The notes beneath the pieces were generated by a model. The model was not told where the DNA came from and ran no database searches. It saw only the letters and a program-made list of their open reading frames with translations. Below, piece by piece: positions 38,438-41,121 of a DNA stretch of 64,000 nucleotides (positions are counted from its first letter, which is position 1; each line of letters opens with the position of its first letter). This DNA comes from an uncultured Syntrophaceae bacterium. Its GTDB lineage: Bacteria > Desulfobacterota > Syntrophia > Syntrophales > UBA2210. The translations under genes were made by a program, and so were the position numbers. Where the stretch lies: NCBI GenBank assembly GCA_964610735.1, contig CAZSYH010000004.1:5299-69298 (forward strand). Reading direction: 5' to 3'.

Positions 38438-39556
38438 TTAAGACTTTCTTGTCATGTTGATAAGTTGACAGACTCTCTTCAGATAAAGCTCCCAGACTTT
38501 GAAACCCCGAGAAGACACGAAACTCTGTCTCAATATTTCCGGCCTTGGAAACAGTGTCTCAAGGATGGAGTAAATCCGCACCCGTAACCCTCTGTCAGGG
38601 GAGAAGAGAAAAAGGGCGGCCCATAAGGGCAGGGATCCGTTTTTTAGTCTTTCTTTCAGCAGTCTCCTTTCCAGAAAGTGTAGTCTTTCCAACTTCAATG
38701 CCCGGCTGACTTCCGGTGGGAAGAAAAAATCAAACAGATAGCGGATCAGGAAAAAGATATATGAAACAGATTTTTCCTGGCCCATATATCGGATTCGATT
38801 AATGAGCGCTTCCCAGTCAGACTTCTTCCAGCCGGCGAACAGACTTTTGATATCCACCAGCCAGATCATTCTCTCCGCATTGTGTTTGAGTGCGTGAAGG
38901 CTCAAGATTATAACCTGATCATATTTGTTTAAAGACAGGACTTCCTCGCCCTCAAAGTCCATGATCCTGACATTCGTATAGAAATGACTCTGTCCCCGGG
39001 CAAGAATAAACTTTCGCGCCCCAATGCGTTCAGCTCCTAAAATGTGGGAGTGAAGATCGATGGTGGTGCGCCTCCTTCGGAAAGTACCCGGATAAGCAGG
39101 ATCGCTCCGGTAGCCCAGGGCGGTCAGTGTCTGGATAATTTCCCCGTGATCCCTGCCGGGTATCCAGAGATCGATATCAGTTAATTGCCTCAAACCAATA
39201 TCATGATAGACCTGTTTCAAAAGAATTATTCCCTTCAGAGGAACAACCTTTATCTTTTTCTGATTGAGCTGATGGAGAATTTCTTTGAAATCATGGAGCA
39301 GCTTGAGGTTAAAAACAACATTTCCGTGGTAGAGATTTCGAAGCGTTTCTACCTGCCGCTTATTGAGGATATCCGACAGATTTGATTTAGTGAGACTTTT
39401 ATAGAGAAAACCGGCCAGTCCTTCGTCAAAGGCCTTACCGATCAAATGGTCCACATCCACACACCGGAGCATAAGGCGTCGCAATTTCTGCTGTTGATAC
39501 AAGTCAGGATCTAACTCGGCTGAACAGGCCAGTATTTTCTGTTCAAGAGAAGTCAT
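38438..39556 (-). CDS. Uncharacterised nucleotidyltransferase (NTP_transf_5-like)
   Basis: 'KVVPLKGIILLKQVYHDIGLRQLTDIDLWIP' (the LKG...R..DIDL signature) and 'LSLHALKHN'. The family is often found beside PqqD/HprK-like genes in RiPP loci. Confidence 0.65.
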   Translation of the reverse strand: MTSLEQKILACSAELDPDLYQQQKLRRLMLRCVDVDHLIGKAFDEGLAGFLYKSLTKSNLSDILNKRQVETLRNLYHGNVVFNLKLLHDFKEILHQLNQKKIKVVPLKGIILLKQVYHDIGLRQLTDIDLWIPGRDHGEIIQTLTALGYRSDPAYPGTFRRRRTTIDLHSHILGAERIGARKFILARGQSHFYTNVRIMDFEGEEVLSLNKYDQVIILSLHALKHNAERMIWLVDIKSLFAGWKKSDWEALINRIRYMGQEKSVSYIFFLIRYLFDFFFPPEVSRALKLERLHFLERRLLKERLKNGSLPLWAALFLFSPDRGLRVRIYSILETLFPRPEILRQSFVSSRGFKVWELYLKRVCQLINMTRKS

Positions 39557-40292
39557 TCAAAGGCGCCTCACCCCGTCTGATACATGCATCTGGTTGAGGA
39601 AGAGCTCCCTCATCCACAAAGAGGCGGAAAGGCCGCCGGATAAACCACTCGGTTTTGCCCGGCAGGAGACGCCCTATCACATGTCCTGCCATGAGAAGCT
39701 GGAACTCCACTCCGTCGGAACGGCTGAAAGAAAGAACCCGCATACGCATTCCATCCGGCAACCATCGCCTGAACAGTCCCGCTTTAGCCAAACGATGATA
39801 GGCAGGATTCAGAAAGGAAGATATCACCGAATCGATGTTGCAGAAAAATCTGACTGCGGACGCATATAACAGGCCCCTTGTTCCACCATATATTGCCAGA
39901 AGCCGATTCCTCCTTCGCGCGCGGACCACACGCCCGACAATACGATCAGGGCTTAGTGACCAGGGGTCGGCATCTTTGTTATTGTCGCCCTGCGTCATTA
40001 ACCCATGGTCGGAGATGGAAATAACCCTGTGAACAACCATGTCGTTGCTGCCCGGTGGGGAAAATACGATGACATCTCCACGTCGAATCTGATCACCTTC
40101 GCCCGGCGATACATGCATTATGTCAGACACCTTCAAAACAGGGTACATGCTTGAGCCGGTGTAAACCATTTTTTTGGGGGCATATCCGGTCATGTCAGAG
40201 AACCTTTTCCATCTCGTCCCAGAAACAACCGTTAAGGCTGTTTCGGAGAATATAAGCAGGGACAGTCCTGGCCATATTACTCGCGTTATCAA
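39543..40292 (-). CDS. S26B (SipW/archaeal/ER-type) signal peptidase I homolog with ~110-aa C-terminal extension
   Basis: 'YTGSSMYPVL' (Ser nucleophile), 'VVHRVISI' (His) and 'TQGDNNKDADP'. An alternative start at ATG 40193 lies 1 nt after the upstream stop. The longer form adds a hydrophobic N-terminus. Confidence 0.75.
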   Translation of the reverse strand: MITRVIWPGLSLLIFSETALTVVSGTRWKRFSDMTGYAPKKMVYTGSSMYPVLKVSDIMHVSPGEGDQIRRGDVIVFSPPGSNDMVVHRVISISDHGLMTQGDNNKDADPWSLSPDRIVGRVVRARRRNRLLAIYGGTRGLLYASAVRFFCNIDSVISSFLNPAYHRLAKAGLFRRWLPDGMRMRVLSFSRSDGVEFQLLMAGHVIGRLLPGKTEWFIRRPFRLFVDEGALPQPDACIRRGEAPLNDFS

Positions 40293-41121
40293 AAATTTTC
40301 TTCTTTATGTCTGTCTTTTCTTTCCTATCCATGTGCCACCAGACTGGATTAATTGCCTCCGTACAGGAATCATTAATACGCACAGCCGCCTGTCCCTGGC
40401 CTATGGGAACAATTTTATCGGAGGCGGCCTGTTCTATAAAAAAAATCGCGGCAAGGGGGACATGATATTGGATATTCCAGATCTGTTCCGATCCATGCCA
40501 GAGGTGATCGCTCCATGTGGGAACGGGATGAGCAAGGTATCTGTTTTGATCATCCAGCACGACAAGGGACTGATCGTCACTCAAGGCACGCCAGTGTGGT
40601 GGAAGGCGGCGAGACAGGGTGGATTTCCCCGCGCCTCCCGGACCGGCAAGCAACACCCCGCTCCCGTTTCGCTCTGCGAGAGCCCCATGCAGAATAAGCC
40701 CGCCGGAATCGAACGATCTTAAATATATGCCGTAAAGGGCAGTCCACATTTTTATAATGTCAAGTTCATGCCTGCGGGAATGTCCGATCTCACAAACGAT
40801 ATCCGGTATTCCCTTATGTGTCCAGAGTCTGAGAGCCCCGAAATCCACGCCACTCCACCCGTCAGTTGGAAGATCTGTCTTTATCCTCGAGAATATGAGG
40901 GGATTCAGCTCATTACCTTCGTTTTTCTTCCAACGCCCCTGAACAAAGAACATCCCGATACTGCCGCGGCTCATATCCCGATCGTCAGGATTAAGTCCGA
41001 TAATCGTGGCGAATTTTTCTACCCATGACCTTGTGTCCGGAGTGGCCATAAAGGACCAGCAGGCGCCGTTGCCCAGTTTCAGAAGGAACTGTGTGTCGGA
41101 TGTTTTATCTTTCAAACTCAA
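40195..41121 (-). CDS. HprK-related P-loop protein (ScmC-like) of the RiPP cassette
   Basis: 'LHGALAERNGSGVLLAGPGGAGKSTLSRRL...ALSDDQSLV' matches the HPr kinase C-terminal catalytic pattern H-G..v...G.GvLl.G.sG.GKS...L...sDD. TTG start at 41121, 12 nt after the precursor stop. Confidence 0.65.
   Translation of the reverse strand: MSLKDKTSDTQFLLKLGNGACWSFMATPDTRSWVEKFATIIGLNPDDRDMSRGSIGMFFVQGRWKKNEGNELNPLIFSRIKTDLPTDGWSGVDFGALRLWTHKGIPDIVCEIGHSRRHELDIIKMWTALYGIYLRSFDSGGLILHGALAERNGSGVLLAGPGGAGKSTLSRRLPPHWRALSDDQSLVVLDDQNRYLAHPVPTWSDHLWHGSEQIWNIQYHVPLAAIFFIEQAASDKIVPIGQGQAAVRINDSCTEAINPVWWHMDRKEKTDIKKKIFDNASNMARTVPAYILRNSLNGCFWDEMEKVL

Follow-up and report, generated by a model that had tools for sequence, protein, structure and literature searches.

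The 64-kb window analysed here, that is, the whole stretch of 64,000 nucleotides in whose positions all coordinates below are given, contains a run of ten co-directional genes on the minus strand which follow one another closely, any gap or overlap between them measuring just a few bases, and form one apparent operon. The segment on which this study centres, 38438-41121, holds three of these genes, which respectively encode a HprK-like P-loop protein (ScmC), a peptidase of the S26 family and a protein of the NTP_transf_5 family. From its head onwards, the operon comprises:

45266-45730, minus strand: low-molecular-weight protein tyrosine phosphatase, at the operon head (LMWPc, 97 bits)
44478-45275, minus strand: ExeA/PEP-CTERM-type ATPase, also at the operon head (TIGR03015, 234 bits, below the cut-off of 324)
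44155-44472, minus strand: scmD, a PqqD-type recognition element for peptides that ribosomes synthesize and that are modified after translation (RiPPs), 105 aa (TIGR04248, 125.4 bits, cut-off 100; Pfam PqqD, 65 bits)
43039-44148, minus strand: scmE, radical SAM/SPASM maturase (TIGR04250, 622.4 bits, cut-off 400)
41836-42972, minus strand: scmF, radical SAM/SPASM maturase (TIGR04251, 615.8 bits, cut-off 400)
41612-41839, minus strand: scmA2, precursor of 75 aa and tandem duplicate of scmA1 (TIGR04252, 22.7 bits, below the cut-off of 35)
41134-41358, minus strand: scmA1, precursor of 74 aa (TIGR04252, 20.0 bits, below the cut-off of 35)
40195-41121, minus strand: scmC, HprK-like P-loop kinase resembling LppK, 308 aa (TIGR04249, 285.9 bits, cut-off 125, E 3.4e-85)
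39543-40193 (ATG) or 40292 (TTG), minus strand: SipW/archaeal-type S26 peptidase, that is, a type I signal peptidase (SpI; TIGR02228, 63.4 bits, cut-off 51.85)
38438-39556, minus strand: NTP_transf_5 nucleotidyltransferase-fold enzyme resembling PsmN and LppN, 372 aa (PF14907, 141 bits, cut-off 31, E 5.8e-41)

The locus is a member of the SynChlorMet cassette, catalogued in NCBIfam/TIGRFAMs as TIGR04248-TIGR04252, given that ScmC, ScmD, ScmE and ScmF all exceed the curated cut-offs and are encoded contiguously on the minus strand. The model for the precursor, which neither window copy matches above its cut-off, has 49 residues, and both window copies are longer. The SynChlorMet models include neither an S26 peptidase nor an NTP_transf_5 gene, whereas the cassette in the window has both; no NCBIfam model recognized the NTP_transf_5 protein, and for the peptidase the generic models of signal peptidase I alone gave a match. 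An earlier reading of this DNA from its letters alone (the sequence-only reading) had correctly located the HprK-like and NTP_transf_5 open reading frames (ORFs) together with their motifs, namely 'HGALAERNGSGVLLAGPGGAGKST...LSDD' at residues 145-183 of ScmC and 'LKG...RQLTDIDLWIP' at residues 107-132 of the transferase, and had passed over both the S26 peptidase gene lying between them and the cataloguing of the cassette as SynChlorMet. The operon begins with polysaccharide regulators, and a polysaccharide locus adjoins it; the phosphatase/ATPase gene order at its head recurs in the related locus L046. A HD-GYP-like (HD_5) protein encoded on the plus strand at 37184-38296 also adjoins the operon. 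Homologues of this protein are found beside the cassette in 6-7 other loci (L046, L047, L048, L059, L067 and L090), which may mean that it is a regulator dedicated to the operon and does not stand there by chance.

A parallel to this gene set is provided by the linear polyphosphorylated peptide (LPP) clusters of Bacillota (LppK/LppB/LppS/LppN/LppD; Popov et al., Nat Commun 2026, PMC13381572). These are defined by the HprK-like kinase LppK, the discrete PqqD-type RiPP recognition element (RRE) LppB, the SipW-like archaeal-type SpI LppS, the NTP_transf_5 protein LppN and an MsbA-like pump, and often lie inside capsule loci (PMC13381572). LppK attaches as many as four phosphates to the core residue Ser3, while the removal of the leader by LppS requires LppB, and unphosphorylated precursor is cut poorly (PMC13381572). 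In Supplementary Data 2 of that study, the 152 genes of the kinase class include 67 labelled TIGR04249, 65 labelled TIGR04352 and 11 labelled TIGR04355, and the SpI, transferase and RRE are labelled TIGR02228, NTP_transf_5 and PqqD, respectively (PMC13381572). Since the labels from hidden Markov models (HMMs) coincide with those of the window proteins, ScmC, ScmD, the S26 peptidase and the NTP_transf_5 protein fall, as judged by these common labels, into the four families that comprise LppK, LppB, LppS and LppN. The two systems are further alike in the [Y/W]xxPx[L/V] motif of the leader, in the frequent presence of an MsbA-like exporter in related Scm loci and in their placement at polysaccharide loci. 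The Scm cassette differs in the addition of two radical SAM/SPASM enzymes and Cys-repeat precursors, so that it is not of a purely linear type, in the lack of an exporter in the window, and in its hosts, which lie outside Bacillota, whereas LPPs are stated by the authors to be restricted to that phylum (PMC13381572). On the observed family memberships, the invariance of the catalytic residues, the linkage of the genes in many phyla and the build of the precursors, we regard the three genes as that half of a SynChlorMet RiPP cassette which tailors and processes the peptide, and which probably works like the LPP module of Bacillota, a reading to which we assign a probability of roughly 0.55.

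The residues of ScmC that correspond to a kinase active site are H145, a P-loop at G160-T168 (with K166) and D182-D183. In alignments of 28 and later 78 ScmC homologues, H145, G165, K166, T168 and D182 are identical in all 78 sequences, position 167 is Ser or Thr, the column of D183 holds Asp in 73 and Glu in 5, and a conserved H-P-x-P-T-W-S motif is present further on. When the family profile was compared with all PDB sequences, HPr kinase/phosphorylase (HprK/P) alone was matched (1jb1, E 1.6e-4), with the His, P-loop and Asp-Asp pair of the two families in register. The AlphaFold2 model of ScmC, with a predicted local distance difference test (pLDDT) value of 89 and a predicted template-modelling (pTM) score of 0.88, has the phosphoenolpyruvate carboxykinases (PEPCK) as its top Foldseek matches (E about 5e-8, template-modelling score about 0.5). 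The PEP carboxykinases share a common fold with the catalytic domain of HprK/P. The HPr-kinase-type core proposed by the sequence-only reading is therefore upheld in respect of the conserved His, the GxxGxGKS/T loop and the Asp-Asp pair, but not as membership of the HprK/P family itself. A role as a true HprK/P is ruled out by a Pfam Hpr_kinase_C score of 16.2 bits against a gathering score of 33.3; the N-terminal domain of ScmC is also unlike that of HprK/P, and its genomic context is a RiPP pathway rather than the phosphotransferase system. The kinases of lasso peptides possess a His-Lys-Asp-Asp motif of which every residue is needed for activity (PMC9266682), and ScmC retains all four of these residues. 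The invariance of its catalytic residues also disfavours a pure scaffold role for the protein.

The lasso-peptide kinases PadeK, ThcoK and PsmK are likewise HprK-like, are paired with NTP_transf_5 proteins and act on a C-terminal Ser (reviews including PMC9266682; PMC6993621). The paeninodin and pseudomycoidin systems resemble the Scm cassette in this kinase motif, in an NTP_transf_5 protein with an essential DxD, and in a PqqD-type RRE that binds a YxxP leader. They differ from it in that the Scm cassette lacks a lasso cyclase and a B2 protease, its ScmA precursors lack the C-terminal Ser acceptor, and its leader peptidase is a serine enzyme of the S26 type where that of the lasso pathways is a cysteine protease.

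In the NTP_transf_5 protein, G109, Y117, R123, D127, D129 and D235 are invariant in 28/28 homologues from Scm loci, and the pattern of G109 with D127-x-D129 fits the G...DxD signature of the polymerase-beta-type nucleotidyltransferases. A sequence search of the PDB recovered no relative of this protein; its AlphaFold2 model (pLDDT 84) finds its best PDB folds in the nucleotidyltransferase-like protein 5uvd and in ANT(2'')-Ia (5cfu, 4xje and 5cfs), with the MenT toxins and LnuA ranking next. The templates reported for PsmN are 5cfs and 4xje, and PsmN is needed for the addition of a hexose (+162 Da) to the phosphate of pseudomycoidin, an activity lost in the D134A/D136A mutant (PMC6993621). Given the invariant DxD and the common structural neighbours 5cfs and 4xje, the window transferase can be likened to PsmN. 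The sequence-only reading had envisaged a kinase/NTP_transf_5 pair that tailors the peptide with phosphate or nucleotide. The pair itself holds, being a conserved RiPP pair with invariant catalytic residues whose closest studied kinase relatives (LppK, PadeK and PsmK) phosphorylate a Ser of the precursor, but the adduct to be expected from the transferase would by precedent be a hexose rather than adenosine or guanosine monophosphate.

The architecture of the precursors emerges from the comparison of 70 non-redundant ScmA-type sequences drawn from 53 loci. The scmA1 product has a leader beginning MNYEKPLLIDF..., followed by a core with five C-x-x-G repeats. A leader motif [Y/W]-x-x-P-x-L-x-x-L, which reads YEKPLL in the window, is common to the 70 precursors and constitutes the RRE-binding motif. 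It is followed by a linker of about 8-12 residues ending in small-x-Gly (counted from the first Cys, position -2 is Gly in 55% and position -4 is Ala in 37%), and then by a core of 2-19 repeats of about 10 residues each, C-x-x-G-[S/T/G]-[S/G]-A, with Gly at +3 of the Cys in 74-81% and a commonest Cys-Cys spacing of 10. Ser or Thr occupies +4 or +5 of the Cys in 55/70 first repeats and in 223 of the 374 repeats overall (60%), where composition alone would predict about 40%. In some cassettes (L050:10921-12493 and L108:4832-9161) the precursors number three or four and are long, at about 100-140 aa; each of the three in L050 contains 19 Cys, some of them in CC pairs, and is far denser in Cys than the five-Cys peptides of the window. 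On the side of the recognition element, the column of D84 in ScmD tracks the aromatic residue of the leader: it holds H, D or Q in 32/32 loci with Tyr-type leaders, and Y in 5, E in 2, H in 1 and S in 1 of the 9 loci with Trp-type leaders, these counts not being corrected for phylogeny. The pattern resembles a rule, reported for the RREs of LPP and paeninodin, by which Tyr and Trp are told apart.

Both window precursors end, as the sequence-only reading had noticed, in GCSLGSLA(A/T), with Ala and Thr as their respective last residues. This tail is the last C-x-x-G-[S/T] repeat and not a dedicated acceptor; it is common to the closest relatives L046 and L047 only, and differs even there (...GCSLGSLAK and ...GCSLGSSVR, respectively). 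The idea that it offers a conserved, paeninodin-like Ser acceptor is accordingly abandoned, and a C-terminal Ser acceptor is rejected, as a Ser is the last residue in only 6 of the 72 ScmA homologues for which it was counted. The LPP pathway, whose acceptor is an internal Ser not far from where the leader is cut, is the better parallel, and by analogy with it an internal Ser close to the leader junction is the likelier acceptor, with S24 ('CKSG'), the first Ser past the leader in both window precursors, as a candidate.

The peptidase gene encodes 216 aa from the ATG at 40193, one base past the scmC stop codon; its longest ORF, from the TTG at 40292, which is used here for residue numbers, would overlap scmC by 98 nt. 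No N-terminal membrane helix is present in the protein read from ATG 40193. As its homologues begin only 10-15 residues ahead of the catalytic Ser, and the nearest relatives, L046 and L047, begin at a Met equivalent to that ATG, the peptidase lacks the membrane anchor of the housekeeping signal peptidases and is probably cytoplasmic. Across 46 homologues G46, S48, H88, D103 and D109 are 100% conserved, and M49, P51, R89 and G102 are conserved as well, with S48, H88 and D103/D109 as the Ser/His/Asp triad. The enzyme is the probable leader peptidase of the cassette. Type I signal peptidases prefer small residues at -3 and -1, and because the small-x-Gly end of the ScmA linker fits this preference, A17-E18-G19↓K20 is predicted as the site of leader cleavage. 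Conservation across the peptidase family also extends to about 90 residues at the C-terminus (W216, R220-P-F-R-L and D227). The databases contain three ScmC-peptidase fusion proteins (P0111, P0112 and P0115, from metagenomes) in which the two parts follow the same order as the genes, a Rosetta-stone connection of kinase and leader peptidase.

A pattern scan of the GTDB species genomes, built on a closer alignment of 8 sequences, returned 80 ScmC loci, and partner genes were counted in the 42 that have at least 5 kb on both sides. An S26 peptidase lies near ScmC in 32 of these (adjacent in 28), a PqqD protein in 34, radical SAM genes in 34 and an NTP_transf_5 protein in 19. The hosts include Desulfobacterota (Syntrophales, Desulfobacterales and others), Nitrospirota, Calditrichota, Brocadiaceae, Omnitrophota, Chlorobiaceae, Planctomycetota, Aminicenantes, Saganbacteria, KSB1, Victivallales, Methanothrix and Methanocella, which puts the module in no fewer than 10 phyla, methanogenic archaea among them. 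Within the phylum of the window itself, ScmC exceeds the cut-off in 18 of 401 sampled genomes. Eight sampled loci contain more distant ScmC-like kinases (30-55 bits, below the TIGR04249 cut-off), and these too are accompanied by an adjoining PqqD protein in 8/8, and by NTP_transf_5 in 7, radical SAM genes in 7 and an S26 peptidase in 6. The loci L126-L133, from the same phylum, have such distant kinases and another gene order (NTP_transf_5, kinase, radical SAM, PqqD, S26, radical SAM), which suggests a superfamily larger than the SynChlorMet models capture.

Unbiased clustering of the neighbouring ORFs ranks the exporter first after the core genes, the MsbA-like form being present in 29/79 loci. 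It is followed by Wzc-like chain-length/tyrosine-kinase proteins (9 loci), Wza (7), HD_5/HD-GYP-like proteins (7), ExeA-like ATPases (6) and GT4 glycosyltransferases (5); single-sequence searches detect polysaccharide-type neighbours in 13/80 loci. A distinct arrangement is seen at L060:9141-9332 and L096:9197-9388, where ScmD, ScmC, an ABC exporter and an NTP_transf_5 protein occur without radical SAM genes. The precursor of the former has one Cys and that of the latter none, and their sequences read …FEKPKLIRI… and …KIKFEKPKLIRI(D/N)LLDESALGDTGFGNEPPPPD…. The genomes of both also carry a full Scm cassette (L065 and L082), and these two loci look like LPP-type 'linear' systems outside Bacillota.

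With respect to Cys chemistry, the maturases of ranthipeptides and sactipeptides (PapB, CteB and AlbA) resemble ScmE and ScmF in being radical SAM enzymes with SPASM domains that serve precursors with repeated Cys motifs. They differ in that all scores to the PapB, CteB and AlbA families are far under the cut-offs, and that, according to the literature searched, a kinase, S26 peptidase or NTP_transf_5 protein is known from no ranthipeptide or sactipeptide pathway. The protein thioethers of methanogens (PMC13692751) were also considered and belong to another system, Crp.

From these observations we infer a pathway; the inference extends to all of its chemistry, to the residue that accepts phosphate, to the point of cleavage and to the sequence of the steps. 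ScmD, as a PqqD-type RRE, would bind the Y-x-x-P-x-L motif in the ScmA leader, whereupon ScmE and ScmF would act on the Cys residues of the C-x-x-G-[S/T] repeats, presumably to form thioether crosslinks. ScmC would use ATP to place phosphate, possibly polyphosphate, on a Ser hydroxyl inside the core and not at the C-terminus. The soluble S26 peptidase would cut off the leader, with the small-x-Gly motif A17-E18-G19 ahead of the first Cys as the probable point of cleavage, after its Gly, and the NTP_transf_5 enzyme would decorate the phosphate, by precedent with a hexose whose donor may be supplied by the surrounding polysaccharide locus. That the mature product would unite radical-SAM Cys crosslinks and Ser-O-(poly)phosphate, possibly capped with hexose by the NTP_transf_5 enzyme, is a more tentative proposition than the kinship with the LPP module, and one to which we give somewhat less than even odds. 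A phosphorylated, Cys-crosslinked peptide is a plausible product and one undescribed so far; in agreement with the sequence-only reading, the literature searched contains no phosphorylated thioether peptide made by radical SAM enzymes.

Several observations weigh against the proposed equivalence with the LPP module. Experimental work on Scm proteins is nonexistent, with SynChlorMet named in no paper of the literature searched and nothing relevant recovered there on ScmC, ScmE or ScmF, or on the pairing of an HPr kinase with radical SAM/SPASM enzymes. The likeness of ScmC to true HprK/P spans only about 75 residues around the P-loop. When all 64 kb of the window were searched with an HMM derived from exporters encoded in related loci, no MsbA-like ABC exporter was detected; its near kin L046 and L047 are also without one within the sequence fetched. 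The LPP consensus YxxPxVLxHQxIxFETxxS, with its acceptor at core Ser3, is not reproduced in ScmA, which has only the [Y/W]xxPxL part and no FET..S; hence neither the acceptor Ser nor the cleavage site is transferable from that system. In addition, no Ser position is fixed family-wide among the 70 precursors, and the Ser and Thr enriched after C-x-x-G could instead accept a radical-SAM crosslink. As for the transferase, it occurs in just the 19 of 42 loci noted above, and LppN was inactive when placed in a heterologous host (PMC13381572), which leaves its chemistry unsettled.

Among the alternatives, the one that survives best, improbable as we consider it, is that ScmC and/or the NTP_transf_5 protein do not modify the peptide at all. 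In that case either ScmC would bind ATP and serve the leader peptidase as a scaffold or chaperone, or the pair would work on an intermediate, sugar or lipid, of the neighbouring exopolysaccharide pathway. The polysaccharide regulators at the operon head, the adjacent polysaccharide locus and the similar neighbours in 13/80 loci are compatible with this, as are the ScmC-peptidase fusions of some genomes and the inactivity of LppN on peptide. However, the invariance of the catalytic His, Lys and Asp-Asp speaks against ScmC being no more than a scaffold, most loci link ScmC to PqqD, the peptidase and precursors while polysaccharide genes occur in a minority, and every studied homologue acts on a peptide. 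A considerably less likely possibility is that phosphorylation is transient, with ScmC activating the Ser or Thr after C-x-x-G for elimination or substitution, so that its pairing with Cys would give lanthionine-like or other crosslinks that leave no phosphate in the product. Class II-IV lanthipeptide synthetases do dehydrate their substrates through phosphorylation followed by elimination, and the excess of Ser and Thr at +4/+5 in the 374 repeats would accord with such a route, but family scans of the cassette detected no lyase or cyclase domain, and the Cys chemistry is already covered by the pair of radical SAM/SPASM enzymes. Furthermore, the nearest studied kinases leave a stable (poly)phosphate, and the presence of the NTP_transf_5 protein implies a persistent phosphate as its substrate. 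Least probable, if by a narrow step, is paeninodin-style phosphorylation by ScmC, or nucleotidylation by the transferase, of a Ser in the C-terminal tail, which the HprK-like nature and NTP_transf_5 pairing of PadeK, ThcoK and PsmK and the identity of the tail in both window precursors save for the last residue would favour, but which is contradicted by the action of the lasso kinases on a Ser in last position, by the Ala and Thr ends of the window precursors and the rarity of terminal Ser among homologues, by the variation of the tail in L046 and L047, and by the absence of a lasso cyclase (C) or B2 cysteine protease among the ten operon proteins in family scans.

The reading of the three genes as an LPP-type tailoring and processing module offers a concrete function for ScmC, long a 'conserved hypothetical' of a catalogued cassette. 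The set of kinase, RRE, S26 peptidase and NTP_transf_5 protein was first characterized in 2026 and reported as confined to Bacillota, and it is found here outside that phylum in the company of two radical SAM/SPASM maturases; while the SynChlorMet catalogue entry was known, the combination of an LPP-type module with these maturases and with Cys-repeat precursors is new. It predicts a class of phospho(glyco)-thioether peptides, in which the modification would be expected at an internal Ser, with a hexose on the phosphate, rather than at a C-terminal Ser or in the form of a nucleotide. That LPP and Scm systems alike are repeatedly linked to polysaccharide loci hints at some part in the biology of the matrix. 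The module that would make a product with both Cys crosslinks and Ser phosphate, spread over at least 10 phyla that include methanogenic archaea, may be tied in some lineages to the production of exopolysaccharide or of the biofilm matrix.

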